The translations under genes were made by a program, and so were the position numbers. Positions 1 through 58,115 of a stretch of 64,000 nt of DNA are shown piece after piece (within the stretch, counting starts at the first letter, position 1; each line of letters begins with the position of its first letter). This stretch comes from Gnetum montanum (Eukaryota; Plantae; Gnetophyta): the NCBI GenBank assembly GCA_015680685.1, contig MNCI01002435.1, forward strand, positions 88,570 through 152,569. The letters run 5' to 3'. The notes under the pieces are model-generated. The model saw only the letters and a program-made list of their open reading frames with translations. It searched no databases and was not told where the DNA came from.

Positions 1-1761
1 ACATTGTCTCAAAAACATGATCGATTCTATGAGTTGGCCAAGAACCCAGCTTTAGCAATAGTTAATGAGCCTCCCATTCCAAGAGGCTTTAGGTTGGACA
101 GGTTTTGCGAATATCACCAATGGTGTGGGCACAAAACTGACTACTGTTTCACCTTAAAACAGGATATACAACACATGATTGATAAGGGTGAAATTGTATT
201 TGATGAGGCAAACCCAGTAGGGCCCCAAAACCAACCCATGGGAGTCTACAAGGATCCTCTTAATACTAATGATGCACCATATGTGATTAACACTATCCAT
301 GTGGAGAACGGATAGGACATCTTGCGAAAACCTTTTGTAATCTGCAGGCCCTCTGAAAATACACCTACCTCAACACCTCCTCAAACTCCTTTCATCATAT
401 GCACATTCCCCGCACCACAAAAACCATTCATCATCAGCGTACCCCCTTCTGTTGCAGAAGCAATCACACCATTGGAAACCCAGCCCACTCCCTTCTTGAT
501 TCAGGTGCCGAAACAACCTAATGTGCAACCCCCTACCATTTTCCCGCAAACCCTACGAGAGCGTCTTGCTGACAAGCTGACATGAGAGCTCCTAGAGAAG
601 GAACATCATGAGCGCGAAGTAGGACCACCAAAGCCCATATCGCTAAATGCTGTTCCTATGGGTCCATCCACTAGTGAGCCTAGCACAAGTCACCAAGACA
701 AGAATACTAGTACTCCCAAGGTCCCAAACTCAACATCCCCAGTTGCCAATGCAAAAATCCCTCTACGAGAGATAAAAATGCTAGGTCAAATGGACCAAGT
801 CTCCACAGATAAGGGTGCCCCAAATGGTAAAGATCTAGCGAGTGCATTGACTCAAGTCACATAGGCTTTGAAACAAAAGAATACTTCCTTAAGCCCATAT
901 CATCTAGTAATGACTTGAACTATACATTGAGAAGCACTTGTGCGTATGTTGACTTTGATCCCTATTAGTGAGGACCTTCCTGCAGACAAGCTGTCTATTT
1001 ATGCAATACTATCCCCACAACCTCAAGAATCGAGGACCACATTCCTAGAGTTTTGTGCTAATGACATCAAGCAGGATGAAAAAATTGAAAAGGTTATTAC
1101 AGCCCCTATGTTCATAACGATACAAGTCAACCATTTCAAAATACGCAGGGTGCATGTCGATGATGGCATGACAACGAATGTAAGATCCTTCCCTGTCATC
1201 GAGAAACTAGGGCTTATAGAATAAATACAGCCCACAACAACTTCTTTCTTAAAATCCTTCAATGGTTCTCATGCTGTGGTGAAAGGTATGGTTACCTTGG
1301 GTTTCATAGTAAGAGATCAATTCCCCACATCAGCTAAATTCGTAGTGGTCGACGAAATGTCGGGGTTCAATCTAATTTTAGGACATCCTTAGCTAGCTCA
1401 ACTTGGAGCCATGTCCCCACCAATCCATCAAGAGATTCACCTACCTTATGAGGGTGGTGAGATCATCATACATGGCGATACAACAACATCACTTACTTCC
1501 CCATACTCGGGAATGGATCAAGGGTCAAAAATTGAATTATTTGAGCCTAAACAAGGAACCATGAGTATACTTTAAGACATGAACCCAATGTTAACTCATG
1601 ATCCTAATAAAATTGAGGAAGCACCGGACAACAAAAACATAGGAGCCATTCCCACTGACGTCTCTTGGTCAAAGCTACCCTTTAACAACACTAGTGAAGG
1701 GGAAGGTGAGTATAAGATCGTGCCTACAAGCGATCAAAAAGCAACTCAATGGGTAGGGTGA
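1..1761 (+). pseudogene. gag-pro: Degenerate gag C-terminus + aspartic protease of element A
   Basis: Cys/His knuckle FCEYHQWCGHKTDYC; protease RRVHVDDGMTTNV and FNLILG; multiple in-frame stops; colinear with B and C. Confidence 0.9.
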
Positions 1762-1773
1762 ACTACCCCCAAG

Positions 1774-2015
1774 CATCCAAAATGATGTTAAACTACCAAT
1801 CATCTAGTACGACGTTAAACTGCCAACAAACATCTGCAATGACGTTAAACTAGCCATGGTTAGAAATGGCTGGTTCCTTTTAAAGCTCCCTAAAACTATT
1901 ATTGCTTTTGGCCCACTATGACCTAAAACTGGTAATCCTTCTTTCTTTAACATAGATGTGATAGTCCATCATGACTTTAAATTGATGTACACAGCCCGAA
2001 ATGGCTTTAAACTAG
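1774..2015 (+). ncRNA. Cluster of ~6 coremin-like pseudoknot/hairpin motifs just after the gag-pro stop
   Basis: Examples: gtacgacgttaaactgc, ggcccactatgacctaaaactggt, tagtccatcatgactttaaattgatg, agcccgaaatggctttaaactag. Confidence 0.6.
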
Positions 2016-2352
2016 AGCTAGCATGTTATAAATTCACGAACTCTTGTTATGTTACATTAAATTTTCATTTACAAGTTACAAGTTACAATTCCAATTCATG
2101 CCTTCTCATTACTTTCTTTTTTTACAAATATTTGATTCACGTTTTGTTCTCTCATTTTACATTCACTACACACATATCTTCATGATAATACTTAAGAAAA
2201 AAAATAAAAAGAGAAAACATATAAAATAAAAAAAAAATATTGAATGTCAATATGGTTATAAAATTCCAACACATTATGCCATGATTAGATCCATATTATT
2301 ACATTTGTCCATGTTTCCATCAAACATCCAAAAAAAATCCAAAACATTAAGC

Positions 2353-5300
2353 TCATGGAGGGGGATAGTCCCCAAGATCCTCTTCATCATCTGCTCTTGC
2401 CCCACTAGGGCTAGCTCCATCATTAGCATGTCCCTATAATAGAACAAAAAAACAAAAAAAAAACAAGCAAGAGTTATAAAGCAAATCATGAATGCAAAAC
2501 TAAAAAAAATAGTAACACTAACAATGAAAACAATAAAACCATACAAAAATAAGCACCATAATAAAACACTTACAAGTGAGGAAGGCCTTAGGTTGGCCTC
2601 TAAACGTCATAGAATCTCCTCCTCGGGCACATTTGCCCAATCCTCCTCCAGGCCAAGATCAATACCAATCAAGGTTTTACCCTTGTCCACCGAGGTCCAA
2701 GCAGGGCGTTCAAGAGAGAACATGCCTATCGATGCCTCCCCGAAAGTGGTGGTAATGGTTCTCTCGAGAGATCCCTCCACCTCTGTGCACTCAGCAAACC
2801 TATCGTAAGTAGGACGCAAGCCTAGCCCATCAATGAACATTTCCATTCGACGATGTTCAACTGACTCCTCCTTTAACCATTTCTTATACTAATGCTTGTG
2901 ATCCTTTTGGTCTTGATACCACTTCCGTACTTTAGTAGCAATGGATTTCCAATCGTGACATTTCCTGTTCAACAAATCCATCCGTGCCCTTTGTTCCACT
3001 AAATCCCGTGTCACCTGCACTTTGTTGTTCAAAACTATCCAGTAACGTGCATAGGTGATCTCAGATGTGCACCAAGTACTATCACCAGACAACATAGCAG
3101 CAGCAAAATCATAACAGGATTAGAGATCCCTCTTCTCCTCTCTCTCCTTTATCAGTGCTTCCTTTAATGAGTGCACCTCGTCCCATAGATACTCAACTGA
3201 ACACCTACAAGTCCAAAGATACTTAGTGTTTTGTACGTGCAACTAGAAACTACATCGTAAACTTTTCTAGGGACTTGCTCAATATTCCCTGGCAATTCAA
3301 GGAGAGCATCAATATGAGTAGCCTTAGAAGGATCCCATTGAAGCTTGGCGCCTACAGGTGTAAGTATTGTGCACATGAATCAACTATAATAAAAAAAATG
3401 AATGCAAAGAAACACAATAAACCCAAACACTTAGCATAATACATAATAGACATATACCTAGTTCTAGATGAGCTTGTTGTAGGTGAGCGACCACATCATT
3501 AACGATGCCTGTGACAAAGTCTGTTTTACTAAGCATCTCATGCCATGGTCTTAGCTGGTCAATAGAGGTGGGACAAGCATGAGAGGTCATCCCAATTGGG
3601 GCCTATGACCTTGACACCTCTGCCCAAGATGTATGGGCCTCAGAAACCTCTGCATCTACCTCTGATGCTAGAAATAATCAAGATAATCAAGAACAAAAAA
3701 TGAAAATTAAAGGATACAAAAATATGGATTAAGCTGAAAGGAACATACCAAAAATTCCTTTACTGGTTAGCTTGGGAGGATCGCCAAGTTGCAAAGATCC
3801 ATTGAAGAAACCATCAAAGACACCTCTCTCATAGCTTGAATGCCTAAGTGCGTCCAAGGCCTCTGCAAGTTTCATCCCCATGATGCTTGTCACATCTTCC
3901 TCTTGTGGGGTAGGAAGTTCCTCGATTACTTCTTTTCCCTCTTTTCCTTCTTCCTCTGGCCCTATGACAACCACTTCTAGTTCAACCATCGGGGCCAAGG
4001 CTTCTCTCTCCTTCTCAGGACTTTCCTATTATAACACTAGAATCCTAGTGTTAGTATGACATAGCATATACGTATGTTTAATAAACATATAAACCAAAAG
4101 AATAAGCAAAAGAAAAAATGTAAATATATAACAGTAAAATAAAATATTTATCCTCCACTAGCAGTACAAAGCGGATTCTCTTCGCTTTTGGTGGTCTCAC
4201 CTCTAGGGTAGGCTCCCTTGGGTGTTCATTTCTCTTCACCTTCGCCTTGGATCTCCTAATGGTCTCACGGATCAGACGTTCAGCCCCTATAACAAATGTG
4301 TGCAATATAGACAGTTCCAATCCCAAGCTATCACGAGAATGATGGGAACAACTAGCTGCACCCCCAGTAGTAATAGACACTAATTCTTCAATGCCTTCGG
4401 GTGGGTCCTGAGATCTAATGGTGCTAAACAAATGGCGAATCCAGGTGCAGGACAACTATGAACGATCCCTCAATATATAATGACTATCATCATAAACTAC
4501 TAGGAACTCAAAAAACCTATGTAGGTACCCCACGAAGAAAGCAAATGTGAAGTGGGATTTGGCATTGATGTTTGACTGTAATCTGACAATCTCTCCATGA
4601 AAGCCAGATCCAAGAAACTGTGCCTAGTTGTAATTCATACCTATCTCTAGCACTACACGTATGACACGTGCAAACTCGATCCCAAGGTTTCTTTCTTGAG
4701 AAAGAGATTTAGGGAATGCCCGTGCCTGGAAGAGAGGATACAAGATGTTCACCTCCATTGATCGGGTGTCATCTTGCATGGAAAAACCTTTAGGACTACG
4801 AGATACACCTAACCACTCTTCAAGATCTTTTATGACCTAACCTTCTTTAGTTGCTTTATCTATGGCCACCCTGGCACCATCCGTGGGCACACCAAAGAGA
4901 TCGGAAAGGAACTCGGTGCTCAGGTGGAAAGATACCTTGACTCCTCGAACCCGTGTAGTAAAATGGGAAGCATCATCACTAAAAGAATCAACAATGGTGA
5001 TCATCTTAGTCGTCGGAACATTAGAAGTCAAAGCAGTAAACAAGTCCATCAGATCTGCCTGGGTAAGGTGCTTGATTATCAAATCAGGAGCTTTCATCTA
5101 CAACCATTATTATGACTGTTCTACCTCCCCATATTTCATAAAAAGGGTGGCCTCAGTATGCCCTGATACGATGGTAACTTCATCAGAAGAGACCGTCGCT
5201 GTAGAAAAAAAACATAGAGTGAAAGATTAGAAACATAGCACATGATGATGCAACAAAAAGAAAATGGAGTCTAGAGTGTGATCATTTACCATCAATAAAT

Positions 5301-7400
5301 GGCATAGGCACATTAGGTGCAGGATCAATTCTCCAAGGAAAAATTGGCCCATTAGAGGACCAATCCTCATGCAACCAACCACGAACTTGACAACATTCAA
5401 AAGCCCTTGAAAATTACCTATGGTAGTCAACAATAGCCGCTTTTTTCTAGTGTAGTACTGTAGCACGAAGAATGGCGCCCACCATGAATGCCTCCAACGC
5501 TTTGTGCGCTAAGGCAAGCCCATCGTCATCATCATGCATCTCATTCTCATCAGAATGAGGATTGCATAGAAAAAGAATATTTATGCATAGAAAATGATAT
5601 AATCTTAAAAGAATCAAAATTTAAGTAAAGCATAGAAGAGCATACCTGTCTACTCTATACATTGTCCCAGGTAGGTTCTGGAATAGAGTGTGCACACAGA
5701 AGGCTAGGAAAAGTGTGTTACTGCTATTATAATGACTGCAAGTAGGTAGCTCCCACACATGAGTAAAGGGACAAGTAGATCTAAGGCCCTTAGAAGGGCC
5801 TCCCTCAACTGTAAAAAGTCTCTCATCTATGTCAGTAATGAAGGAAAGCATGTCTTGTGTAGACCCAGGCAACATGGTTTCAATGATATCACAAGCCAAC
5901 TGCTCACTCAAATGAGACCATATAATCACGCTAAAATTTTGCAAAATGAATGACAGAAATGAACCAACACCGGGACAAAACCATATCACATGATGCCCAA
6001 TGCGCATGTCATAAGGAGGTACGTTCGGTCCAAAGGGGCCAAACCAAGCAAGTACAGCCAAAAAGGGTTTAGGTCCCCTGCATACAACCAAAAATTTTAA
6101 GTGAGCAAAGAGTCCAACTGCTCAAAATGATTTAAAACCACATAAATCAAAACATAAATAATAGTTAGTACACAACTTCACCCCATGAGACAAGGACACC
6201 AATATTTATTCAATGTATTTAACACTCGCTAGGGTTAATTGAAATTTCTTTTACACAGTAGTTTATTGTAGGCAACGTAAAATGAATACACAAGTGTAAA
6301 AACGTGAACATTCACAGATTCAACATAAACTTAGAAAAAACATAGAAACATATTTAAATTATTTGTCTCAAGAAAATAATAAACAATGTAGACATAAAAC
6401 CAGCAAATAATAAACATCTCAGCAAACAATCCACATCTTCATGCTATTGGGAACTCACACTACAGCTTCCCAGCAACTCACGCTAAGCCTAATCCCAATA
6501 ACTCACGCTACTAAACCTCACGTTGTGCCTGTCTTCTCCTAGGCACTCATGCTGGGGTTTCCTTGGGTTACTCATGCTGCAGGAACTCACGATGTGCCTG
6601 TCTCCCGGGCACTCACGCTGGGGTTTCCTTGGCTTACTCACGTTGCCTGTAGCTCATGCTGCCCAAGAAGCCCTGGCACTCACACTAGAAACTAACCCTA
6701 GCCTGCACTCACACTGAGCCTCCCTTTGGTTGTCGCACTGCCCTGGAGAGGTCACACTACCAGAAAAAACAAAGCCTCCCCTACAACGCAGCTCACGCTG
6801 CCAAAAAAACCAAGCCTCCCCTACAACATAGCTCACACCGCCAAAAACAAAAAAAATAGGCCTCCCCCTGCAATGCAGCTACTGCCCAGGATATCCCTGA
6901 CAAACACAACGTGCTCACCCCAGTGAACAAAATGTAAAGAAATCCAGCTCGCCCTACACAAGCCTCATGCACGACCTGGGTCATTCACGCTCTGGATCAT
7001 TCACGCCCTGGATTACTCATGTTGACACCATAAAAATCAAAAAACAGTAAGCCACAAGCTCCAGAAATAAGCCCTAAATCCCTAAAACATCCCAAAATCA
7101 TGGCCATAGAAATCATGCTGCCCTAGCTAATGCTGTGTGCGGAATATCGAAGAAAAAAACAAGAGGAAACAAACCCACCTGCGCAGAGCTCCATCCCATG
7201 CTGGAACCCTAGCCTAAGGGAGATGCTAAAGTACCTCTTTGCTCTCCTCCACAAACATCAGATTTTCTTGCCTCTTCCCTTTGCCTAGGCTTGCCTTCCC
7301 TTTGCCCTTCATGGCTCACGTTGACGCTCACACTGCACCTCATGCTACACTCCCCAGCTCACACTGCAATCCAAAGCCAACAACTCACGCGAGCACAAAT
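2353..7400 (-). pseudogene. Multi-exon antisense accessory gene inside element A (Transposase_32/Athila-ORF-like domain plus coiled-coil C-terminus), degenerate
   Basis: Minus-strand exons ~7400-7179, ~5930-5646, ~5561-5290, 5198-4152, 4025-3749, 3667-3458, 3383-2574 and 2433-2353, bounded by GT..AG sites (two sites one transition away). Peptide TTRVRGVKVSFHLSTEFLSDLFGVPTDG. Homologous to C 55623-57869. Confidence 0.75.
6460..7395. repeat. Dense array of CTCACGCT/CTCATGCT/CTCACACT motifs with short tandem duplications
   Basis: Dozens of ctcacg/ctcatg/ctcaca copies; duplicated units tgtgcctgtct..ggcactca(t/c)gctggggtttccttgg and aagcctcccctacaac. Confidence 0.75.
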
Positions 7401-7789
7401 GACGCTCCCCCCCCCTCGTCACTTCAAAACCTTTCTTAAACCCCTAATATTTAATTTAATTTAATTTAAATTCTTTTATTTATTTAAATTTACCATGTTT
7501 CATGTTTAAATTTTGTTTTCTTGTTATTATTTATGTCATCTTTATTTCATGCTTGTTTAGCATTCCTCATCATTCCATCCTCAGGAGATGAATCCAAAAA
7601 AAAGATATATAAAAAGGAAAGGGGAGAAAACATATAAAAATACATAATGAAGCACATGAAAATCCATAGGACTTTAAAATCCTTTAAATTTATGGTTCAC
7701 ACGAAATCAACAATGCTCTATACACTGATCCAAAATGACAAATTGACATGAATATTATTGGCTCGGTACGGTCTAAAACTGCCATAACT

Positions 7790-10700
7790 ACTGCTACGTC
7801 CCACAATTTTGTTAGTACATAGATTAATTACCCAATGCCCATTTACATTTAACNNNNNNNNNNNNNNNNNNNNNNNNNNNNNNNNNNNNNNNNNNNNNNN
7901 NNNNNNNNNNNNNNNNNNNNNNNNNNNNNNNNNNNNNNNNNNNNNNNNNNNNNNNNNNNNNNNNNNNNNNNNNNNNNNNNNNNAAAGACAATATAAAAAC
8001 ATTTGCATGGTCATATACCAACATGCTAGGATTGGACCCTTGAATCATCCAACACAACATCATTCTTGATGGAGAAATCAGACCGGTGAAGCAAAAAGCA
8101 CAAAAGGTTAAACCTAAGGTAGCGTTAACAATTTGTGCTAAAATCACAAAGCTCTACCAAACCAGTTTCATTCGTGTTGTTGACTATTCTGATTGGGTAT
8201 CAAACATTGTCTTAGTCCCTAAGAAGAACGATAGTATACGCATATGCATTGACTTCAGTGATCTCAACACAGCCACTATAAATGATGACTTCCCGCTACC
8301 TAGCATTGATCAACTTAGTGACACAACTGCTAGGCATGCGCACTATTATCCTTTATGGATGGATTTCCATAATACAATCAAATAAGAATCAACCCAAAAC
8401 ATCAACTCAGAACAACCTTTATGACACCTTGGGCAAGATTCTGCTATACAATGATGTCGTTTGGTCTTAAAAATGCAGGTGCTACATATCAATGAGCAAT
8501 GACATATATATTTAGTGATTACATGCTCAATTTGTTCAATGATTATGTTGACGACATTGTGGTTAAATCTAAAACAACCGAACAGCATGCAAAAGATCTA
8601 GACTTAGTGCTTAAACGTTGTCTCAAATATGACCTTAGGCTCAACCCAAAGAAGTGTGTCTTTGCTGTTAAAACAAGAAAAATTCTTAGCTTCGTAGTCT
8701 CTGGAACAAGGATATGGTTAGACCCTGACAAGGTTAAGGCAATAATTAACATGCAACCACCAAAAAACCTTTCCGAACTACGTGGTCTTCAAGGTAGATT
8801 GGGATTCATTAGACGCTTTATCAAAAGACTAACAGATAATTTGAGACCCATGCAACACCTATTACAAAAGAATGTGCATTTCCAATGGACTCAACAATGC
8901 TAGGAAGCATCCAAAAACATAAAACAAGAGCTGGCTCAACTGCCAACCATTTATCCCCTACAAAGTGATAAATCCTTCTACATCTACCTTGCAACTTCCG
9001 ATTCTTCCATTGCATCTATGCTTTGTCAAAAATGTAAAGATGGAGTCGAGGTCCCTATATATTACCTAAGCCACGCTCTAATTGCTTATGAACAAAGATA
9101 CAACGACGTGGAGAAATCATGCCTTGCCCTTGTCTTCTCCTTGAAGAAATGGCAGCATTATCTCTTCCATAATCAAGTTTACATCATTTGCAAGAATAAT
9201 GTATTCTGCGCCATCACTAACAACATCTATGAGTCGAGTAGGATAGCTAGGTGGAAAGCGATGATCGCAAAGTTTGACTTACACTATGTCACTCAATCTT
9301 CCACAAAAGGTCAAGCAATAGTCACATAATTAATCGTCTCGCCAATGCATGATCAAGCAACGATAAACCCTAAATTCCCCGATGAGAATGTTAATAGTAT
9401 AGACACCGTACCTGATAACTACAAGTTAACACTTTATTTCGATGGAGCTTCAACTTCTCGAGGAGGAAGTGCTACGACCATTTTAACATACCCCTTCTGA
9501 GAAATCAAACCCTTTGTGTACCGATTAACCTTTTCCTACACCAATAATGTGGCAAAATACGAATGCCTTCTTAGAGGTCTTCGGGCAGCATTGACTTCAG
9601 GAATCACACGTCTTGTAGTTCGAGGTGATTTAGAGCTAGTCATTAATCAAGTCATGGAGGTTTATGCATGCAAGGCTCTCCATTTGCAACCATATCGTGA
9701 TTTGACTAAACATTTGTTGAGGTAATTAGTAGAAGTGGATATACAACATGTCCCCAAAAGAGAAAACACCATTGCCAATGCACTTGCTACAATAGCCCTA
9801 AACGTGACACCTGAAATAGTCCATGTGTTGCCTAACTCTATAACAAATTGTGCCGAACCTATAACCAATGGTCTCGATGAGATGCCTATAGCATCCGTTA
9901 GTACAACACATGTAATTGAATGGTACGATGACATAAAATAGTACCTTCTACGAGGTAAACCTCCACAACATTTGACAAATGCTCAAAAAGACGTCGTGCG
10001 AAAACACTCTCGACAATATGCGTTAATAGGAGACACCTTGTGTCGCAAATCCTATGAAGGAATTCTGTTGATGTGCATTAGTAGTATTGATGGTCAAACA
10101 ATTGTAGAACAAGTCCATGAAGGACTTTGTGAAGGGTACATAGCACCTAAAGCAATGACAATAAAGATTAGGCGCTTGGGCTACTACTGGCCACAGTGGA
10201 GTACGATTGCTTCTCCAAGGTTAGGACATGTGACATTTGCCAAAGGCATGGTAACCTAATACATGTGCCACCTAACAAATTTCACACAACACAAATCACA
10301 TGGCCATTCCAAAGATGGGGATTAGACTTAATTGGATTGATAACGCCATCATCCTCTACAAGACATAGTTTCATTATCACTACAACTGAATACTTCACAA
10401 AATGGGTAGAAGCTATTCCCCTTAGGAAGACCACGTTTAAACATGTTTGCACTTTCATAATAGAAAACATTGTGACTCGTTTTGGTATTTCAATGACCAT
10501 CGTTATTGACAATGGGCTACAGTTTAGCAATGCAGATACTAAAAGCTTCTGTGAAAGCCTAGGTATTAAACATGCATTCTCGTCACCTTACTACCTCCAG
10601 AGCAATGGTCAAGCGGAGGCTACAAACAAAACTATCGTCATGGTGCTCAAAAAGATGTTAAATAAGAGCAAAAGATGATGGCACGAACAATTAGTCTATG

Positions 10701-11155
10701 CATTGTGGGCATACAGAACAACACATCGCACATGTATAGGTAAAACTCCATATAGTCTTGTATACGGGTTTGAAGTTGTTTTACCTTTAGAGTTACAGGT
10801 TCCGTCGTTGCGGATAGCTCTCTTAGGCCTCCTCGATGAAAGCTAAACCAATGAAATGCACATTGCTGACCTTGACTTGGTGGAGGAAGAATGTGTACAA
10901 ACACTTGATTAGATCGAGTGGTACCAGAAACAACAACAGCAACGACATAAACACGATCTGCATAAGTGCCCAATTAAAGAAGGAGACCTAGTCCTTAAGG
11001 CCATCTATGAACATCTAGATAAATTCTCAACTAACTAGGAATGACCTTACTTAGTCACCAAGGCATAAAATAACAGAGCATTCAAGCTTGACTTGGATGG
11101 GAATGAGTTCGCTAATCCTACAAATCACCTGTACTTGAAATGGTACTATGTTTGA
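7790..11155 (+). pseudogene. pol: Degenerate pol: RT, RNase H, additional archaeal-type RNase H (aRH), integrase
   Basis: PMPIYI before the gap; AWSY..GLDP; RICIDFSDLN; YVDDIVV; RH EKSCLALV; aRH LYFDGAS..TNNVAKYE..RGDLELVINQ; INT H..H..CDICQ, WGLDLIG, DNGLQF, QSNGQAE; ends LKWYYV*. Frameshifts and stops present. Confidence 0.95.
7854..7983. other. Assembly gap (130 N)
   Basis: Run of n. Confidence 1.
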
Positions 11156-11174
11156 TGAACTTGAGGTACGTAAC

Positions 11175-11502
11175 GGTCTTGGCATCATGACCTAAAACTG
11201 ATACCATAGAATGGTCCAAGGGCTATGACTTGAAACTGGCACCATAGAATTTTTTGGAGTCATGACAATAAACTGATACCACAGAACCTTGTCTAGCATG
11301 ACACTAAACTGCCACATTTGTTCACCATGACGTAAAACTAGCATGCAGAGTCCACTAAGACTATAAACTAGTTTGCCTCTTCACAATCTGCTACGACTAT
11401 AAACTAGCACTACACCATCTGCTACGACGCTAAACTGGCACCGTCCAAAGGGTTATGACGTGAAACTAACCCGCAACAGTCCGCTAAGACTATAAACTGG
11501 TG
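11175..11502 (+). ncRNA. Tandem array of 10 coremin-like pseudoknot motifs at the start of the element A 3'UTR
   Basis: Ten units with conserved nGACnnnAAAC and covarying flanking stems, e.g. cgtccaaagggtta-tgacgtgaaac-taaccc and agtccacta-agactataaac-tagt. Confidence 0.7.
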
Positions 11503-12662
11503 ACATCATCAACGACAAGGCAATACTTGGAAAAATATGTTGATGTAATTGGCTATACCTATTCCACAAAAACTCGCTGCGTAATTTGTCTCACAGACCC
11601 TGATGAAGCTGATGTTTTTCATAACTCTATCTGCTTTGAAAAGTGCACACGATGGATCCATCTCCTTGGTTGTTTTCAAGTTTAAAGTACTTAGTTAACT
11701 AATTCATTTATGGTTTTCTTATCTTCTTGGAGTTGTGTTTGCAGGATGACACACCTGAGGCGTTCGTGCATAGGTGCACTTCATCATGATGGCAAGGTAT
11801 CACATTCTTCCTGATGCACATAACTGGGTTAATCAATCCATTCATAAGTACATTCCCCAACTACTGATACATTCCCTATTCCCCATCGTGTTCCCCTTAT
11901 CCTATTCAATTACACCCCCTAATAGATTCTACTCATCCCGAAGCTCTGGAAACACTATTGCACACTGTGATTCTTTAAGTAATGGCAACGCAAAACACAG
12001 TGCACGGTATATGATACAAATGCAAATGCATGATCACAAGTATAGCATGAAAAGCAAGCTCTTCCAAAAAGAACATAAAAAAAGAAAAGAAAAACAAACA
12101 AAAAAGAAAAAAAGAATAAAAGGATCAAAGAGCAAAATTCATGGAAAAGGTCTTCATGACCCTGTTGACATCATAGACCAAAGACCATTGGCTCTTCTCA
12201 TACAAACCCTAGGCGAGAAGGCAATTGTCTAAGAAAAACAGTTACACTCGTGTCTCAAACAACATCACGTGGCTTTGGTTGTTTACAATGGGCTCTCGTA
12301 AACACTCTACAAGAGTCATGTTTCTCCAAAGAATGCACCTCCTATGTCTTGGTTCCGAGTCTACTAAAAACTAGTTACCGATAAGAACTAAAGATATGGC
12401 TTGTTCATGTGAGAGCATTCCTCTCCCACAATTATAACAGTAATTATAACCCTTGATCAACTCTTGATTTCCCTAGTTACAACCAATCCCCTTGCATCTT
12501 GAACTGCACTTCCCCAATCCCATGTACTTTTGAACATGGTGTGATGACGTCTAGCCAGGGGCTGACGGGTAATGCTTGGTACTTGATTGATCATGGTGTT
12601 TTGTACTTCTTTGTAGACGCCTCTTGGGTGCATTCCTCTAGACGTCAACAAAGAGGGGTCAA

Positions 12663-14419
12663 TGAAACACCACTAATTTCGACCTAATACTTTAAAATGA
12701 GAACAACTCAAACCCTTTCAACCTTTCGAGAGGCAAACATTTGACTAAGGCATGTAACTCATGCTCAACTTGTTAAGCTAGCTTGTGCTCAGCGTGAGAA
12801 ACTCCAATAGCTTCAAAATCAAGTTAAAGATGGTCCAACTTGAGGGTGAAAGCCATCCTCAAGGGCCACTGCTATCCACTCCAAGTTTCAACATTCGGGA
12901 ATTCAAATTTCAAGACAAATTGGATAAATTTTTTTCACTCACGCTGTGGTCATGCTGAGGTCACACTCACAGCATGAGTATAGTGTGACCAACTCTGAGA
13001 GCCTCAAAACTAAGTCGAAATGGTTTGATTTCCTAGGTGTAAGTCATCCTTAGAGTTCATTGTTGACAACTTCAAGTTCTAGCCTCCAGAATTCCAAATT
13101 TCAGGTTCAAAATTGCAATTTTTTGTAACTCACGCTATGGTCACACTGCACTCACGCTGGCAATGTGAGTCTAGCATGAGTTACCAAAAGTGGTTTAAAA
13201 TAAGGCACATCAAGCTCAATTCTTGACTTGCAGATTACTCTCAAAGTCAACCACAGTCAGTCAATTACTATACTCAAGAAACAAGTTTCAAAGATCAAAA
13301 TTTGGTGTGAAATATATCATTTATAGCTCACTCACATTGCGATCGCGCTGAGGTCATGTTGGCAGGGTGAGTGCAGCGTGAGTACTAGTCACGCCCAGTC
13401 AAAATCACACCAAACACACGCTAAGGACATGCCAAGACAAAATCAACTCACGCTAGGAGTCCTGGTGAAACAGAGATGCCTCAAATAGCCACAAAACCAC
13501 TCAAATCAACATCCTGCAGCAGTTAGTTCAGGGACTAACAAGTTTCAAGTGAGCCAGAGTCAATCTCTCTTGTTGTACATTATCATCTTCATTGTAAATT
13601 TTCATCATTTGTGAGCTTATCAAACTCTTACGCTCCAAATTGTATCTGCTTCCATGGGTGTAAGCTAGCTTGTGTGAGCCAACACATGTTGTAAGATACA
13701 GTGCATTCGGTCAAGAACGTAGCCCACTTACATATGTCCAACTGACACGTAGCCGTCCATCTAACACCTGTCACATGATTCGTTTTTCTCTTATTTTTCA
13801 ACCATTAATCCATCTATGAGTTCCGTGCCTGAACCTGGCCAAACCTTATAAATACCCCATCCATCCACATAAATGGGGTTGGCAATTTTGAGGGTTGACG
13901 GCTTAGGAAACACTGGCTAGCAACTTTTGGAGGCTCAGGCGCACTTGACTCCTAGCATTTAAGCATCTGCAAGCATATCGCCCCGGGGCTTAGCACTTGA
14001 CTTGCCATTCACACACGCAACTACGCTTTGACTGGTGCACATTCATTCTAAGCAATATAATATAATTCATTTTTTCCTTCCATTATATTGTTTACTCTAT
14101 TTTAAATTTAGTTTACGCTATGTTTACAATACCATTTCTGTATACGCTCTATTTGCATTTCGTGTGTCATTGTTTACATTTCGAACATCAGTTATGATAA
14201 TCCAACACAAGCCATAGCTTACGTTTAGGGAAGTCCTTAGTTGATTTGCGTGCAGATCATCCAAGGCACTCTCCCTTCGTTTTCTTTTCCAGCTTGCCCT
14301 CACGCAAAGGCAGGGTCAACTGTGCCCGTTCAATGATCTTTCAGTGTTTTTTTTCCTTTCCAACCTTATGTCAATAATTTTGATTGGTACACCAACTACC
14401 AAGATTTTCTTTTGCTACA
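12663..14419 (+). repeat. LTR (1757 bp) shared by tandem elements A and B
   Basis: TGAAACACC...GCTACA termini as in C; PPT directly upstream; degenerate PBS directly downstream; TATA-like ccttataaatacc at ~13844. Confidence 0.85.
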
Positions 14420-14424
14420 TTTTT

Positions 14425-14440
14425 TAGTGCTAGAAGGAGG
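14425..14440 (+). promoter_or_regulatory. Primer binding site (tRNA-Asn type, degenerate) of element B
   Basis: TAGTGCTAGAAGGAGG versus intact TGGCGCTAGAAGGAGGG in C. Confidence 0.75.
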
Positions 14441-14489
14441 ACGAGATCTAAGTTTGTGTCAAGTATCATTTTTAACTGTTATGACTTGT

Positions 14490-19215: not shown

Positions 19216-19519
19216 GTGGTTGAAGCCAATAGCCTCCTAGAGGATCCTAAAACTTCCACACCTCCTAATCTACACTGGGTTAGGACACAACTACATGATC
19301 AAGACTTTTCTTTGGCCAAAAACATGTTACACACCAGTTCATCCCTTGCCTCCATTGGCCATGCATTTTTGGTTTTTTCTTGGGTTGCGTTTATTCATGC
19401 ATCTACATTTCACCTACTTGCCTAGTTTACACACTACTTTGCTTTTTTTACGCATTTCTACTTTGTTTACATATCCATCTACTTAGCTTATGCATTGCAT
19501 TTGAAAAAACTACAAAAAC

Positions 19520-46609: not shown

Positions 46610-49600
46610 ACAATTCTAGGACATAATAATCGTTGATGAGATTTGGCTCTCTTGGTTTGTTTTGCACTGGGTGCCTTCATCATTTTTTGAGTTTGATTCC
46701 ACAGATTTACTTATGCTTCTTTGTTTTGTAGTTCACACTTTACTAGTCTATTTATCTTATCTGGAGTTTTAATTTATGTGGAGATTTTTCCGTGTGATTC
46801 TTAAATGCTTTTTTCTGCATATCCAGATCGTTTTTTCTTGATGATAAACTCCAGGCAATCATTATATCATTACTGATGCGTACATGTGTAGTACATTTAT
46901 GGTTGATTTACCTTTTAGTTTGGGAAAGAGCATACGGAATGCCTTGCTAGCTCGTGAAAGCTCTTGAACTCCAAGCAAATGAATTTGTGCTTTGTAATTA
47001 TTTCCGGTGGAAGCATGTGAGCATGAAAGCATGGGATCATGGACATCATGCCATGCCATGTCTTATACATTAAAAAATCTAGAAATTGCAAACAAATCTC
47101 AAATGTACATCCAGAAACTATCCCATTTCCAAACAATTTGCAAAACTAGGGCCAAATCCCCTACAGCTCCTCCATGTCATCACTTGGCCAACAAGACTTT
47201 GGCAAACAACTAGAGAAAACCAATTATCAACCTTAGGATCATAAGGACAGCAGAGAATGCACAAATTTGATGAGTAGAGAGAACAACAGTGCATTTTAAG
47301 CAGAAAAAAACGTGCATTTGAGAAGCAAAGACAGCAAGATATGCTAACCCTAGCAAAATATATATATGCACCGTCAAGAGCCATTAGAACAATAACTTGA
47401 GAGGCAAAAATTAAAATTGTAGAGAAATGTTTTCCACCAGTTATTTCCATTTCTTCTTTTGGATGGTGAAGTTTTTTTATCAAAAATTGTTGGACTTTAA
47501 TTTAGAGATGAACACAATAAAGAAGTGGGCTGTGTTTTAATTATAAGTTTACAATTTCGGTAGGCTTTGCAAGTTATATAGAGGATGCAGGATTTGAGCA
47601 GTGCTTTGTTGAGCCAGTTTTCAAAGGTATAATGTCATATGCAATTGGCAGATTTAATTTGGTTTGGTAGATACTACTGAAAACAACCATTATAAAAGCT
47701 GAATTTGAATTCTCAGTGTATCATTCAATTGGTAATTATCAAAAATATAAACAATTTTTAGTTTTCACTAAGGAAAAAGAATAGTTTCAAACAAACATAA
47801 AGGAACGAAATACTTGCTGAGTAATGATTCCATCACAAAATCATGATAAGCTAAACAGAGCAAAGCAAAGCTTTCATTTCATTCTCCACTTAACGTCTCT
47901 TTTGTTTTAATGTGTCCTCCCCTGCTCTCTCTGCCAATACTATGATTTATAGGAGTATTTTCTGATTCTAGTTGCATATGGTTAAGAAGGCGGGAGGAAA
48001 TTGCAACAGTTATACAGGCATATCTGTATAACCTTTATTAGAGTTTTTGCTTCATGTAATGCAATGTTAATTAGTAAAATAATTTACTTGAAGAAACGCT
48101 TGAAATTGAATGGTTTTTGTAGAAAACTGAAGATGACCTCCTAGGTGTATTCTGAGTCCACCATTAAATTTAGCATGGTAAAAAATATTGGAATTTATCC
48201 CTTATTTGGTAGAAATGCACTTTAGGTTAGAAAATTATCATTATTTGAAATCTTGCCTTTGGTAGGGTTTGAACTATTAATCTCTGAAATTTGTCTGTGT
48301 GTATTGATCAAAGATGATATCCTTAGTGGATTGGGAATGGACCGTTGTCAAGTTGAAAACATTGGAGACAGCTTTGTTCAAATTGGAGTAGGAATGAGGA
48401 AGTTATGGTCCTTCAAGCATCTTAAATCTGCCTCTACTGTTTGAGATTTGAATTTGTGATCTTTTCCTCAATACACATGTTCAAAGGTGTTAGATTTGGT
48501 GTGGGGCTTCTATTGTTGTGTTTACTGACTCTCATACCCTCTGACACTTGGAAGAAATTTATTGTGCAATGGAGACTGCCTGGAAAATGCAAAATTGGAG
48601 ACTCCCTACAAATCAACATTGGGATGATGATCCATATCTCTCAAATTGTTGAACAAAATTCATCATATGAATAATTGAAACAAACCTTTGTGAAACACCC
48701 CAAAAAATTGTGAAGTCATTCTCGCTTCACTTGGCCTTGCAATCCGCGGAACACCATGGCAGTTCTTCAGGAGGAGAATGCCCTGAGCCTAGGCCGGCTA
48801 GTTCGGCAAATTTTCTACTTTGGGCATGGACGGGCCTTACATCATCCTGCTTGTCCACCCAAGTAGCCTGCCCAACTGACAGCCTACTCAAAAACGGTGC
48901 GCGGAGTTGGCAGCAGCATTCTGGATGCACGAAACAGTTCGGCAAGTTTTCTAAGTCACGAAGTCTGCTACACTACGCTACGACTCGTAGCGTAGCACGC
49001 TTTAGAAAACGATGGCAGAACGAAGTGCTACGCTACGCTACACCACGTAGCGTAGCATAGCAACAACTTCGTTACCACTCCCCTTGCCCAATTTCAGGAT
49101 ATGCAGCAATGTCCCTTCCTACCAGGAAGCGGCGGACCATGTCTGCTGCTACACTACGTCGAGCTACATGGCGCAGCAAGGCGTAGCAATCTTGCGGAAG
49201 AGACAGAAGGCAGCTCAAAGGGCAGAATCGGCAGAGTTCGCAAGACTTGCATCGCATGAGACAAAGTTTGCAGATCGGCAAAACTTTCACGATTAAGGCC
49301 AGTTGCTACGCTACGTAGTGTAGCAAGCATGCAACATATAGCAGAACGTGCGACAAGGTGCTACGCTACGCCAAGCATGCTACGCTACAAATCACAGCAA
49401 GGCATGAGGGTGGTTGTGCGACATTAATGCACTTCACCTAATTTGACCATTGGCACATGTCTCCAAACGCTGACGGCGCAATTACGGCGTGGCAGGCTCG
49501 TAGTTATTGCATGACGGGTTTGCGTTACAACGGCCTCATAGGTCCAACGGTCATGCATGGCACAAATGGTGCTAGCAAGTCAACGAAAGCCCAAGGCACG

Positions 49601-50388
49601 TAGCGTTCAAACTGTCTCTTTTGCATACCCTTGGTCCTATAAATACCTTGGCAAGTAGCATTCAAAAAGAGGCCGGAATTTCTTGAAGTAAGTAGCATCC
49701 AAAAAAGTTAAAAGATTTTTGGAGAGACAGCATTGAGAGATTCGGGCTTGCTCCTTAACAAGTTTCTTTTTACATCGAGCATTGTAAGCTTCCTGTTTGA
49801 CACTGCAAACAGTTAGCATTTTTAGCTGGCATTTTGTTCTATCCTTTTTTTCCTTTTTTCTTCTACCACCTTGGTAGAATCCCTGTGCGGCCAACATTCA
49901 GGTCCGCACCAAAGCGCACCACTTGCTTTGCTCGACATGTCCTGGTCATTCTCGGGATCTCTGCACGTCGTCGCACTGTGCAACCGATTGTATCCACCCT
50001 AATGGAGCAAACTTGTAGTTCTTGAGCGGTGCATGTTTCTAACTACATTTTACCTTATTTCCTGCCTGTTGTCTCGTTTTGCATTATTTTCCTGTTTTAT
50101 TCATTTTTAAGCATTACTTCGCATTATTGTGGCATTTTAAGCTGTTTCTTTTCCGCTTTATTTATTTTCGAGCATTATTTCGCATTCCATTTCGTCTCAA
50201 AAATATACATTGCAAAAGGCTATATTGACGCCGATGTAAGTCCCTGTTTGATCGACCAGACCGTTCAGGGCACCATGTGTCCACACACACCCAACACGAC
50301 CCTCCCGCGGGTATGGGGTCGAAACTGTCGTGCCCATTGACCCCCCGGTGTTTTCCAGCCGTCGACGTTTTCGGTCGCTACAATTTTC

Positions 50389-50405
50389 TGGCGCTAGAAG
50401 GAGGG
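50389..50405 (+). promoter_or_regulatory. PBS complementary to the plant tRNA-Asn 3' end
   Basis: TGGCGCTAGAAGGAGGG is the reverse complement of ...CCCUCCUUCUAGCG-CCA (tRNA identity from memory). Confidence 0.8.
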
Positions 50406-50469
50406 CCTTTTGTTGCCTTCGCCGTTTGTCACGGTAGTTCTGTGAGCCTTTTGCGCCCTGATACACATG

Positions 50470-51305: not shown

Positions 51306-51387
51306 TTGTGTTGCTCTTTCAGTCTCTTTATTCTTTTTGCGCTTCTTGCGCCTTTTTTTCCTTTTTTGCATAATTACTTGCTTAGCA

Positions 51388-54300
51388 ATGGCTTCCACGA
51401 CCACCGTTGTTGACACCTTCAATGCGGAGGTGCCCTTCACGATTCAAGGCACCACTGGTGCTAAACAATCGTTGAACCCAATGATGGAAACACGATGATC
51501 CCTCAGAATCCAAAATCAAGGACTTGAGGGATTGGCCCAGCAATATGAGCATTACAGCTTCCTTTGTGCAAAGGTGCAGGTCAGTCTGCCCTTGGATTTA
51601 CACGAGCTCGAAGAAAAACGTAGCTTCGAGTTCGCTTACTGCAACGGGAAGGAATTCGTTCCTACCCCCGGCGTTTTGTTACCTTTAACACAAGCGTATC
51701 AAAGGCTCTTGGACCAACTAATCCAGTTGGCCAGGCTTAGGGAGCAACAGGACACAGCGTCCGACTAAGAGGACACCTTCCAAAACGGACAGGAGGAACT
51801 CGATTCCCAATCTGACGAGGGAGGCCAAGTCAACCCCATTCTTATCCGTCCCACCCAGTCCTTCTGGGCCAACCCGTTGTCTGTCACCGCCCCATTTGCC
51901 ATTACGCCTATGCTTCCGCAGCCTACAGCTGCAACTGCAATGGGTAGCCATACCACATTCCAAGCATATCCTTGCACTTATTCCCCTATTGCGTTCACAG
52001 CAGCTATGCCCCCGCAAACTGATTATCAGCACATTCCTGCAGTATGTAACATACCTATCACGGCTACCCTACTGCATGTTCATACTATACCTTCGCAACC
52101 GCACATAACTGCCATGCCAATTCCTACGCTAGCATCTATTCCACCCATAGTGGTGGGCCCCGGTCTATCCACGTGGTGGGCACCGTTCGCTTCTTCATTT
52201 GTTCTACAATTGTTGCAGATGTCTCACCACGTTCGCCCTCAGACCTACTTTACCCCGCAAACGGTACATCCTAATACAGGGACATGGTCTGTCCCGCTGG
52301 TGATTCAAACGGTCTATTCGGTGGCTCAACCCGTTGTTACTGCTATGACAGTACCACCCACTAGGTGGTGGACAACGCAAACAACACCTACAGCGGGGGC
52401 GGCCTCGACGGCACCGTTGATGGGTCAGCCCGCCACCGCCACCATGCCGCATGTGGGAGCTGCCTCTTCAGTCCCTCAACTGTCTATAGCGTCGCCAGGT
52501 CTGGACCAAGCGTTTTAGCTCATCCAGACCCTCAATGAGGAAATAAAACGCCTAAAAGCAGTGGGGTCCGACACGGTACAGGTCATGGACTTTTATTAGG
52601 ATGACCTCGTCAGCCCTGCAATCCCTGCTTTAATGTTACCCCCCGGGATGTCTCTCCCACACTTCACGAAGTACGACGATGAGGGAGATCCCAATGCGCA
52701 TCTTGTCACTTTCAGGTCTGAGTCTTTGTTGTTGCAACAATGGCCGCACATGATCATTCGTGTCTTCGCCATGTCCCTAGCCGGGAAATCCTTAGATTGG
52801 TACCGCGCGTTGCCACGCTCATCCCTTTCAACTTTGGAAGAGCTCCTGACCTAGTTCGTGACATGCTTCAAGTACAACTTGAAGCTAGAAACCACGCTGG
52901 ATCAGTTGATGAGTGTGAAACAAGACCCGCTAGAACCAGTCCAAAAATTTATTCAACGTTGGAGCACAACCCTTAATGAAATCCGCGAGCCCATCGTGAA
53001 GGCTCACTTGTTGGCCGTCTTTAAGGGTGCAGTAAACGACTTCATCAAGTCCAAACTATATTACCTCGCTCCTCGCTCTCTTAGTCAGGCTTTTGCTCAG
53101 ACTAAGAGCATACAAGACGCGGCCGAAGCAAGCAAAGACCCGGCCTATATCGCTTACAAAAGCACCTTCGCAAAGAAGGATAAGGGTAAGGGCCCAACAA
53201 CCACAGTAGCCGCTGTGGCAACCGAGGCCAAGCCCAAGCCCAACAGTAGCGGTAGCAAAACTAACAAGAAACCGGCCATACCTACGGCTAATCCTGCGCC
53301 GAAACTGGGCCAAGCACCGCAACCCGTTGCACCTACACCCGAGACATCTGCATACACCAAACCCAACTTTGAGCACAAAGACCGCTCAAAATACACCCCA
53401 CTGCCTCTCAAACCTTCAGAACTCCTGAAGCAACTGTTGGCAGCGGGATACATCCAACACAAGCAGATGTCGGAAGAAGCAAACGCAAGACATCAACGCT
53501 ACTGCGAGCTCCTTAGGAATCCCTCTTTGGCCCTGCCCAATGAGCCTCCGGTCCCTAGGGGTTTCAGGTTAGACAGGTTTTGTGACTACCACCAACTGTG
53601 TGGTCACACCACGGATTATTGTCTGTCGTTGCATAATGATATCCAAAGATTAATCGACCTGGGGAAGCTGGTACTAGACAAAAGCAACCCAGTCTGCCCT
53701 GAAAATCAATCTATGTATGTCTACACAGATCCCCTCAACGCCAATAATGCTGGTTACGTAATTAACACCATCGGCATTGACAACAATCCCACGCCACCCC
53801 GCCAGCCATTTGTGATCCGTGTGCCTCAGCGTAGTGCACTAGCACCGCCAATGGTTGGTCCAAGCTTGTAGCTGCCCTTCATCCTAAAGGTACCACCATC
53901 AACATCCACCTTTGCACTGCCTGTTGGCGAGGCCATGCGGTCTTGTTAGTTAACACCTCTAGCTCCATTCATTATCAGGGGGCCGATGTCCTCAAAGGCC
54001 CCTATCTCGCACAACACAGCTGAGCAGCCTCCTCGCCTTGCAAGGCGAGAAGTCCGCTTTGTGGACGAAATGTCGAAGGGAAGTACCGTCAAAAGCATCC
54101 CCATGCCTACGTTTTCGCCCCTTGCATCTGTACCTTCGTCGTCAAAGGCGAAGATCAACATGACTACGCAGCCTGCATTACCCTGTCGGCAAGGATCTGA
54201 GCCCAGATCTGAGTCAACCTCCCCTCAGGAGATTCGTCTTTTGGGGTGGATCGAAGAGGAGGAAAGTGTCAAACAAGCGAGCGGCCAAGACCTTTTGGAC

Positions 54301-55206
54301 ACCCTCATCCAGGTCAAGCAAGCTTTAAAGCAGAAAAATGCCACACCAAGCTTGTACGATCTAATCATGACTTCTGTACCTCACTGCGAGGCTCTAGTCT
54401 GCATATTAACGACGATTCTGGTCGACGAAAACATGCTAGCGGAAGAGGAAGCGATTCACTCGGTAATGCTTTTCTCTGTACCCGTAGAGCCTGCACCATC
54501 CCAATTAACTTTCAATAACGACGTCATTAGGGAAGATCCCGAGGGGGGTCAAGTAACTACGGTGCCTCTCTTCACCACAATTTGGGTCGGCCAACACCGG
54601 ATCCAAAGGGTACACGTTGATGACGGGGTTGCCACAAACGTTATTCCCTTCCCTATTGTGGACAAGTTGGGATTGGTCGACCAGATTAAGCCCACGGCGA
54701 CGTCATGTCTGAGGTCCTTCAACGGGGCACGGGTCCTGGTGAAGGGCACAGTTCACATAAACTTCATAGCAGGGGATCAGTTCCCCACAGATGCAATGTT
54801 CATCGTAGTCGAAGAAATGCCCGGGTTTAACTTGATCTTGGGAAGATCATGGTTAGCGCAACTTAGGGTTGTTTCCTCGCCCATACACCAAGAAATCCAC
54901 TTACCGTACGCAGGTAGGGAGGTGGTAATCCGCGGTGACGAAGTTGCAACGCAAGCAATCGGCAACGTGGACATGGAACAAGGCTCAGAGGTTACGACCT
55001 CTGAGAATGAAGCGCTTGTTCATGCATACGTTAATCATTCAACGGAAGGATCAGCTCAACGAGCCGACTCCCAAACCAAAAACGCATGGGTCGAGTTGCC
55101 CTTCCAAGCAGAGGACAATGATGTGAACAAGGGCCCTGGCGAAACACCTTGGCCTTGTGTTCCAATCAACCCACGACGGGTCAAGAAGCAGCTACGCATA
55201 GCGTAG
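51388..55206 (+). pseudogene. gag-pro: gag-protease of C: one continuous frame broken only by ~7 point stops
   Basis: ORFs at 51532, 51877, 52633, 52858 and 53986 are all in the same frame; FTKYDDEGDPNAHL, FCDYHQLCGHTTDYC, QRVHVDDGVATN, FNLILGRSWL. Confidence 0.92.
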
Positions 55207-57869: not shown

Positions 57870-58115
57870 AATCCGCTACGACGATAAACTGGCAACAACA
57901 TCGAGCAGCGTCTGCAATGACGATAAACTAGCAGCATCGGCAACCGTCCACTACGACGTAAAACTGCCACCGCTAGTCCACTATGACTATAAACTGGCAT
58001 TGCTCGTCCGCTACGACGTTAAACTGGTGTGTACGGTCTATTGGGACCTTAAACCGGTACAGCGGTCCGCTGGGACCTTAAACCAATACACGGTCTACCA
58101 AGACCTTAAATTGGG
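57870..58115 (+). ncRNA. Tandem array of 8 coremin-like pseudoknot motifs in C
   Basis: cgtccgctacgacgttaaactggtg, tagtccactatgactataaactggc, ggtctattgggaccttaaaccggta and others. Confidence 0.7.

Follow-up and report, generated by a model that had tools for sequence, protein, structure and literature searches.

A probable multi-exon accessory gene antisense to gag-pol in Tat-type Ty3/gypsy elements of Gnetum montanum

The window, a 64,000-nucleotide stretch of Gnetum montanum DNA, contains a gene on the minus strand, opposite to gag-pol and directly after the protease (PR) gene, in two distantly related elements, termed A and C. We consider it probable that a Tat-type Ty3/gypsy family carries, antisense to gag-pol in the interval between PR and reverse transcriptase (RT), a conserved gene of at least seven exons and ~1000 codons, likely expressed as a spliced mRNA of its own and likely with a nuclear accessory protein as its product. 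Its position and orientation, the intron signals, the A-C homology, purifying selection on the antisense frame and the location inside a complete LTR insertion are observed; as judged from sequence, it is likely an element-borne accessory gene with putative splicing and function. An earlier note on this DNA had recognized an intron-bearing antisense retroelement gene, to which we add its PR-RT location and the nature of C as a 5'-truncated deletion derivative. The gene is known from these two copies only, both of which are decayed. C is non-autonomous, and in A, the sole copy with pol, an assembly gap separates the gene from RT. The coordinates are given in Table 1.

Table 1. Features of elements A and C and of the antisense gene (positions in the window).
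Feature	Position	Strand	Remarks
A gag end (nucleocapsid region) and aspartic protease	1..1760	+	frame stops near 1760; amino-acid identity to C 64% (gag-NC), 59% (PR)
Candidate Ogre-like sense intron around the antisense gene (predicted)	1706..7560	+	donor-like 1706, T-rich acceptor 7560; phases differ by one
Short array of 27-30 nt repeats	1761..1860	.	motif as in post-integrase arrays
A last coding exon	2353..2433	-	acidic; terminates at stop
A intron 4	2434..2573	-	phase 0, GT..AG, 140 nt
A exon with conserved helical C-terminal region	2574..3351	-	frameshift near 3225; three stops
A intron 3	3352..3457	-	phase 1; in-frame acceptor 3352; stronger-looking out-of-frame acceptor 3384
A exon	3458..3667	-	one stop
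A intron 2	3668..3748	-	phase 1, GT..AG, 81 nt
A acidic low-complexity exon	3749..4025	-	open
A intron 1	4026..4151	-	phase 1; donor AT; present junction out of frame
A largest exon	4152..5198	-	348 codons, six stops; globular region, then terminal basic patch
A intron b	5199..5289	-	phase 1, GT..AG, in frame
A exon	5290..5561	-	two stops
A intron a	5562..5645	-	phase 2; acceptor AA; in frame
A most upstream coding exon found	5646..6121	-	frame open to 6121
Candidate 5' intron and promoter region (predicted)	6130..7480	-	T-rich stretch ~6130-6450, then CTCACGCT-type motif repeats
Assembly gap	7854..7983	.	130 N, immediately before RT
A pol: RT, RNase H, additional RNase H (9426-9815), integrase	7984..11156	+	PF00078, PF17917, PF00665; PF13456 E 2.6e-13
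A post-integrase array, 3' region, polypurine tract (~12650), LTR (~12660-14420), then PBS-like site	11200..14425	+
C 5' LTR	48691..50386	+	CTTTG before, PBS-like site after
C gag-protease frame	51391..55206	+	7 internal stops/1271 codons; PF03732 E 2.9e-6
C antisense gene, 3' five exons	55623..57875	-	introns 57318-57433, 56917-56984, 56678 (or 56703)-56778, 55758-55852
C repeat array and 3' region	57876..59076	+	homologous to post-integrase region of A and B
C 3' LTR	59077..60781	+	CTTTG after

The host element is a Tat-type Ty3/gypsy element with the order RT-RH-aRH-INT. An additional RNase H (PF13456) sits between RNase H and integrase, and the order PR-RT-RH-INT is accompanied by LTRs, a PBS, a PPT and a 5-bp target-site duplication (TSD), the TSD and the LTR pair being found in C only. 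In a quick RT tree (48 rows, without outgroups; one of 48 hits dropped for short coverage), A has a long end branch (1.08) and falls into no starred set. Its RT-RH shares 35-53% identity with the 48 hits and is not grouped with the angiosperm rows with support. Read through its stops, the A gene comprises 984 codons with 12 stops, and A pol has 14 internal stops in 1029 codons; the equal density (Fisher p 0.85) suggests that both likely decayed jointly after insertion. The exon at 2574..3351 displays a hydrophobic periodicity of 3.5 residues in some windows.

Ten short introns had been described before, six in A and four in C, and all were found at those positions, with GT donors (one AT) and ends reading YAG or YAA. 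Their AT content is 68-79% in A and 57-62% in C, compared to 42-56% in the flanks. A coordinate-free scan of the minus strand recovered exactly the six introns of A, including introns a and b, both in frame. In C it called four, with 4/4 of the earlier donors and 1/4 of the earlier acceptors; the low acceptor agreement arises because AA ends are penalised. The plus strand of either gene gave no intron, and gag/pol controls gave one call in 18,954 strand-bases, under a score and cut-off that were chosen after the introns had been inspected. The segments display the features of plant U2 introns, namely GT..AG ends, a U-rich body, a length of ~70-150 nt and the joining of frames, and nine of ten junctions are in frame when the downstream acceptors of intron 3 are used. 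It is highly improbable that they are AT-rich spacers between separate short ORFs: four of the 20 dinucleotides as given are non-canonical and splicing itself is predicted, but a strand-specific donor, a T-rich body with a branch-like motif, YAG ends, a length of 68-140 nt and frame-joining phases all argue for introns.

The donor phases 1,1,1,0 proposed earlier hold in both copies, and the intron sequences are indeed unalignable, the four A-C pairs scoring no better than shuffles (36, 124, 157 and 165 of 500 reach the score). Conservation of intron position, also claimed for all four, is exact for the donor of intron 1, which lies 40 codons past the common ERL in A and C alike, and for intron 3, whose donor lies five codons past HLQQ in both. 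Introns 2 and 4 are colinear only: in low-complexity stretches, their distances to the next anchor are 40 (A) versus 16 (C) codons and 13 (A) versus 21 (C) codons, respectively. Both acceptors previously assigned to intron 3, 3384 in A and 56703 in C, turned out to be out of frame; in-frame acceptors lie at 3352 (AG, A) and 56678 (AA, C), each four codons ahead of the same Trp. The in-frame model of intron 3 requires an AA end in C. For intron 1 of A, the coordinates stand, but the junction as given is out of frame. Two or three of the four C acceptors read AA (those of introns 2 and 4 and, with intron 3 modelled in frame, that one too), which is more than would be anticipated from the CHG decay rate of C, though the exons lack stops. 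A further intron placed at ~5931-7178 was not sustained; the segment has 57% AT versus 53% in the flanks, and the first-exon frame stays open upstream to 6121.

Alignment of the spliced A and C proteins revealed 31% identity over 554 columns, with a score of 537 versus 10 +/- 6 for shuffles (maximum 29, 200 shuffles). Codon-position identity in the antisense frame is 0.48/0.55/0.35, and position 1 is conserved beyond position 3 (159 vs 87, p 5e-6). The gene has a pS of 0.77, which is saturated, and a dN of 0.62, compared to a dN of 0.27 for gag-NC plus PR. The codon-position signal, this dN at saturated synonymous sites and the A read-through support the once-functional protein of roughly 900-1000 aa postulated before, at about 1000 aa. 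A gene from the host or a DNA transposon that entered the PR-RT spacer of an ancestor, introns included, in a single insertion and has since been carried without serving the element is an unlikely source of this pattern. Such passive cargo would accord with the retained introns, which imply DNA-level capture or later intron gain, with a protein evolving ~2x faster than gag-PR, and with the related element B of the same group, which lacks the antisense gene. However, B also lacks RT-INT and is thus a deletion derivative, the gene is flanked by no terminal inverted repeats or target duplication, and neutral cargo would have lost its open frame, whereas here frame, phases and identity persist with synonymous sites saturated and introns unalignable. 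There is still less reason to favor a gene that is real and spliced but acts mainly via antisense RNA, or that the host has recruited to hold the element in check. LTR elements can be silenced by their antisense transcripts, as stated in PMC7264820 where transcription is treated, and the C frame, which has one frameshift (near 56428, in a T run), is stop-free after its 5' loss (0/619 codons versus 7/1271 in gag-PR, Fisher p 0.10); yet the constraint at the amino-acid level points to a protein, and the gene is carried by two diverged element families.

Element C is a complete insertion with an LTR pair (110 mismatches in 1695 aligned columns) and the 5-bp TSD, which has lost the 5' part of the gene and RT-INT; its array joins the middle of the large exon and thereby marks this deletion. 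Tandem repeats are present in the 5' region of C, and the 5' end of A falls outside the window; in the Ogre subclade, an extra sense ORF, often with PMD, precedes gag. As the C gene lies within a complete LTR element with a TSD, its introns very likely passed through reverse transcription, which bears out the earlier proposal that antisense introns outlast this step. In the proposed mechanism, the plus strand would be the genomic RNA that is reverse-transcribed, where the introns of the antisense gene would not be splice substrates, so that they would be inherited by every new element copy. An internal antisense promoter, likely at 6.4-7.5 kb, would drive the spliced mRNA of the gene; the CTCACGCT-type motif of A recurs often in the LTR at 12.7-13.5 kb. 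According to the part of PMC12786077 that deals with introns, plant LTR retrotransposons generally lack them, with Ogre and EVADE as exceptions. A gene with at least six introns kept across two families at saturated synonymous sites suggests long-term upkeep of host-like genes by retroelements, and the exact junction coordinates now given are testable by one stranded RNA-seq library.

The place of the gene differs from that of the antisense extra ORFs of Retand/Tat elements, which lie between pol and the 3' LTR in the elements covered by the relevant sections of PMC7264820 and PMC11963269. The A gene lies 5' of RT, the A integrase abuts the repeat array, and such a gene is absent from the 3' region common to A, B and C. 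An ordinary 3' antisense ORF could have come to lie between PR and RT by a deletion and an erroneous scaffold join; A would then have a non-autonomous element on its left, and the RT-INT to the right of the gap would belong to another one. The 130-N gap between gene and RT, the known position of such ORFs and the short array with the post-integrase motif directly after the A protease would fit this scenario, which we nevertheless regard as improbable: blastn detected no LTR or LTR-like sequence between gene and gap, the translation of the bases left of the gap resembles the pre-RT motif of six of seven sufficiently long relatives (by eye; blastp did not detect it), and the C gene precedes the array and 3' region, the same array that the A integrase abuts.

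Searches for homologs of the gene were largely negative. The exons gave no significant match in Pfam, none in PHROGs, none among PDB sequences at E<1 and none by phage tblastn, and none of the four families put forward earlier for comparison (PF20167, PF03078, PF04195 and PF10536) was matched by Pfam in the exons scanned. No homolog was found for the C-terminal exon of C among 435 longer proteins, nor for the large exon of A among 1754 proteins of near length. Scans of loci for relatives yielded 0/14 stretches of viral contigs with RT and, in metagenomes, 0/70 with RH and 0/202 with the gene alignment. In Atlas, the best score of the C-terminal exon was 0.84, which is uninformative; scores of 0.92-0.95 were obtained to tyrosine-recombinase core-binding or Phage_int_SAM clusters among others, with a recognition of 1958 (<2300) and 86-117 of 256 features in common. 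No match to a tyrosine-recombinase core-binding (SAM-like) domain came from Pfam, PHROG, PDB sequences or phage tblastn, and the AlphaFold models (pLDDT 39.5 and 34.5) are unusable, being too poor for fold comparison; Foldseek returned no match at E<=0.001, and the hits of VIA-align were generic helical bundles only (best Z 7.9). The resemblances of the putative product to PF20167 and to the recombinase core-binding domain are weak leads. Two other candidates were discarded: a DNA transposon, as no terminal repeats lie at the gene ends, and an LTR remnant at 6.4-7.4 kb, which gave no blastn match.

A basic patch ends the large exon in A and C, and together with the acidic linker and the helical C-terminus it underlies a tentative prediction: by analogy with other Tat antisense ORFs, the product may be a nuclear regulator that aids transcription or transposition of the element. 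A transcript in sense direction might lose all of the 5.9-kb interval by Ogre-type intron splicing, joining gag-PR to pol. Within the PR-RT interval, the plus strand has a single strong acceptor, at 7560, and 16 donor-like motifs, 1706 among them; no donor matching 1706 was seen in C. Like Ogre, in which a partly spliced intron parts gag-PR from RT-RH-aRH-INT, A has the same domain order, a gag-PR ending in a stop and a pre-RT spacer with sense donor- and acceptor-like sites. The aRH between RH and INT, present in A, also occurs in some gymnosperms as well as in ferns, hornworts and clubmosses (PMC10508981), so that this order is not Ogre-specific. The gag-PR/RT spacer of Ogre, as summarized in the section of PMC6317226 that treats it, averages 274 bp and is non-coding, whereas the spacer here is ~5.9 kb and gene-bearing. 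It is conceivable, if somewhat doubtful, that, in a deep-branching Tat lineage, an Ogre-type sense intron has grown to ~5.9 kb and harbors the multi-exon gene in antisense orientation, such that pol mRNA would lose the gene in one splice, unspliced genomic RNA would keep its introns, and the opposite strand would yield a spliced mRNA for an accessory protein of ~1000 aa that binds DNA and belongs to no known family. If true, a retroelement would here use nested splicing on two strands, and ORF-based surveys would have missed a class of genes of this kind.

Introns also persist in other retroelements. HBZ of the deltaretrovirus HTLV-1 is antisense, spliced and short, with about one intron, and is driven from the 3' LTR; Penelope-like elements, a separate retroelement class, retain introns as well. 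We know of no sequence kinship of either to the gene described here. The env-like ORFs of Athila (PF20167 Transposase_32, PF03078) offer another comparison, as the large exon contains a short motif alignable to an env-like ORF of the window that itself matches PF20167 at E 2.5e-8; the motif match is weak (8/30 identities, reached by 27/1000 shuffles with BLOSUM62 and 159/1000 with BLOSUM45; hhalign probability 0.9%), and the Athila ORFs, unlike this gene, lie in sense orientation 3' of pol. The closest parallels are the antisense ORFs of Retand/Tat elements (gene23 of maize Grande, rice RIRE2 and Silene Retand, with TRP28/PF04195, PMD/PF10536 or SMC-like products), which likewise are long ORFs running antisense to gag-pol in Tat elements, with tandem arrays nearby and a likely promoter of their own; the protein of Grande gene23 is nuclear according to the sections of PMC7264820 and PMC11963269 devoted to it. 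Those ORFs are called as plain ORFs, and the word "intron" does not occur in the main text of PMC11963269; the gene here has a match to neither PF04195 nor PF10536, the TRP28 result applying to the exon pieces scanned, with HMMER filters that discard weak matches. A 2020 review calls for spliced and antisense transcripts of extra ORFs to be looked for (PMC7264820). Altogether, the gene is allied to the known Tat accessory ORFs, and what is unusual about it is its at least six introns and its position.

The window consists of nested plant LTR retrotransposons, among them three related Tat-type elements, termed A, B and C. Their proteases (PR) are only 53-59% identical, so they represent three distinct families. 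A and C each carry a minus-strand, intron-split gene (the antisense gene), and these two copies, both decayed, are those seen in the window. Judged from its sequence, this is a real, conserved, intron-containing gene at an unusual position in a Tat retrotransposon. B has neither this gene nor the stretch from reverse transcriptase (RT) to integrase (INT). In C, the five exons at the gene's 3' end run directly into the repeat array that follows integrase in A.

Features of the three Tat-type elements and of other retroelement sequences in the window
Element	Feature	Position	Strand
A	gag-NC and protease	1-1760	
A	antisense gene	2353 to at least 6121	minus
A	introns 1-4	4026-4151, 3668-3748, 3384-3457, 2434-2573	minus
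A	further short introns	5199-5289, 5562-5645	minus
A	assembly gap, 130 N	between antisense gene and RT	
A	RT, RNase H (RH), additional RNase H (aRH), integrase	7984-11156	
A	distal part: repeat array, polypurine tract, LTR	in this order after integrase	
A/B	LTR	12660-14445	
B	gag-PR, repeat array, 3' region	gag at 16742 to LTR start near 21100	
C	complete element: LTRs, gag-PR, CTTTG target duplication	48691-60781	
C	LTR pair	48691-50386, 59077-60781	
C	5' untranslated region, tandem repeats of 122 and 167 nt	50423-51308	
C	introns 1-4	57318-57433, 56917-56984, 56703-56778, 55758-55852	minus
Athila-type	env-like ORF, extending to about 28700	26075-27034	plus
Athila-type	flanking LTR-like repeats	24436-25271, 33324-34245	
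Ty1/copia	remnant, gag and pol domains, Pfam-confirmed	40680-41937	
Ty1/copia	remnant, judged by translation or sequence only	about 31000-33000	minus
Ty1/copia	remnant, judged by translation or sequence only	62930-64000	

The RT-RH region of A gave 48 matches from 1184 candidates, with identities of 35-53%, and in a quick tree it forms a long branch close to the Ginkgo, Cryptomeria and Taxus rows, a placement that lacks starred support. The order RH-aRH-INT occurs in most land-plant groups, according to passages of PMC10508981, and therefore fixes neither the host group nor the subclade. The LTR between A and B has the polypurine tract of A on its left and, on its right, a PBS-like site and then B; the two elements appear to share this single LTR, although their proteases are just 54% identical. 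B (16742-21120) is a derivative reduced to gag-PR; between its PR and its repeat array lie a T-rich stretch and two strong acceptors on the plus strand, at 19683 and 19697.

All ten short introns proposed in an earlier note were found where it had placed them. A coordinate-free scan, combining donor match with T enrichment over both flanks, returned on the minus strand exactly the six A and four C introns with the same donors, none on the plus strand of the gene in either copy, and one match in the 18,954 strand-bases of the gag/pol control; its score was designed with the introns already known, and the result should be read as a check of consistency rather than as a p-value. When acceptors were scanned more strictly across the PR-RT interval of A, six sites came up on the minus strand, four of them proposed acceptors and two within intron 4, and a single one on the plus strand, at 7560. 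Pooled introns have a GC content of 24% versus 45% for exons in A, and 39% versus 53% in C. A long intron had also been proposed at ~5931-7178; this segment shows no AT contrast, and the exon frame stays open as far as 6121, which gives a minimum extent for the gene.

Conservation of intron position between A and C holds for the donors of introns 1 and 3, which lie 40 codons past a common ERL and five codons past HLQQ, respectively, in phase 1 in both copies. Introns 2 and 4 agree only in order and phase: measured from the nearest anchors, they are displaced by 24 and 8 codons, within low-complexity stretches. The four intron pairs are no more alike in sequence than shuffles. The intron-3 acceptors originally assigned are out of frame in A and in C; in-frame sites lie 32 nt (A) and 25 nt (C) beyond them, four codons ahead of the same tryptophan, that of C reading AA. 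With these downstream acceptors nine of the ten junctions are in frame, the exception being intron 1 of A. Within 3352-3384 and 56678-56703 (minus strand), a YAG followed by TTG is kept in both copies upstream of the in-frame acceptor. Its use would shift the frame and remove the helical C-terminus; either an alternative acceptor has been conserved here, or two independent indels may account for the pattern.

In a conceptual reading with X at every break, the gene spans 984 positions in A, interrupted by 12 stops and two breaks of frame, and 624 in C, where stops are absent and the single frameshift falls in a T run. The two proteins align over 554 columns at 31% identity (score 537, versus at most 29 in 200 shuffles). 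Identities at the three codon positions are 0.48, 0.55 and 0.35, position 1 of the antisense frame being more conserved than position 3 (159 versus 87, p 5e-6). Five ungapped blocks (272 codons) give a pS of 0.77, at saturation, and a dN of 0.62, versus 0.27 for gag-NC and PR. The stop density of the A gene equals that of A pol, which would be expected had neither been damaged before insertion. The C LTRs mismatch at 110 of 1695 columns (100 transitions, 10 transversions); the differences cluster at CG and CHG sites and show some excess at plus-strand cytosines (62 versus 38). Since 17-29% of CHG and CG sites differ between the LTRs, decay of splice-site CAG is expected; yet two or three of the four C acceptors are damaged with no stop in frame, for which such decay is not a full explanation.

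The gene lies between PR and RT, with the caveat of the gap before RT in A. Continuity of A across this gap is favored by the lack of LTR-like sequence between gene and gap, by the last bases left of the gap, whose translation looks by eye like the pre-RT motif seen in relatives but is undetected by blastp, and by the direct junction of integrase with the array that in C comes after the gene. The PR-RT spacer of Ogre has a mean length of 274 bp and is an intron subject to partial splicing, as described in PMC6317226 and PMC4408406. In A, the PR frame contains a donor-like site at 1706, which together with the strong acceptor at 7560 would enclose the antisense gene; the phases of these two sites differ by one, and C has no donor matching the 1706 site. 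This candidate Ogre-type sense intron is a lead. A CTCACGCT-type motif, rare elsewhere, is repeated upstream of the gene (6454-7390) and in the LTR (12758-13450); it is possibly a promoter element common to both.

The predicted protein starts with an N-terminal region of ~500 residues. A basic patch, found in A and in C, comes next, then an acidic linker of low complexity; a conserved helical region, whose heptad periodicity is patchy, precedes the acidic tail. Searches of Pfam, PHROGs, PDB sequences, phages (tblastn), the Atlas, and homolog and metagenome loci yielded no relatives, and two structure models were too poor for use. In the Atlas, the first exon of C lies near recombinase core-binding domains (at most 0.95), with low recognition, few common features and no profile support. 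A motif that we take to be PF20167-like aligns weakly with the env-like ORF (8/30 identities, matched by 27 of 1000 shuffles), which itself matches PF20167 (E 2.5e-8). The region downstream in that ORF is coiled-coil-like in appearance.

The extra antisense ORFs of Tat elements are already known, as is the intron of Ogre (PMC7264820, PMC11963269, PMC6317226 and PMC4408406). Full-text literature searches gave no published report of a multi-intron antisense gene, or of an extra PR-RT gene besides a separate aRH ORF, although extra-ORF surveys and Ogre splicing work might describe such a case. Grande gene23 and the accessory genes of retroviruses, as presented in PMC7264820, serve as analogies for the predicted product, a nuclear accessory protein that would help the element; the odds for this specific role are low.
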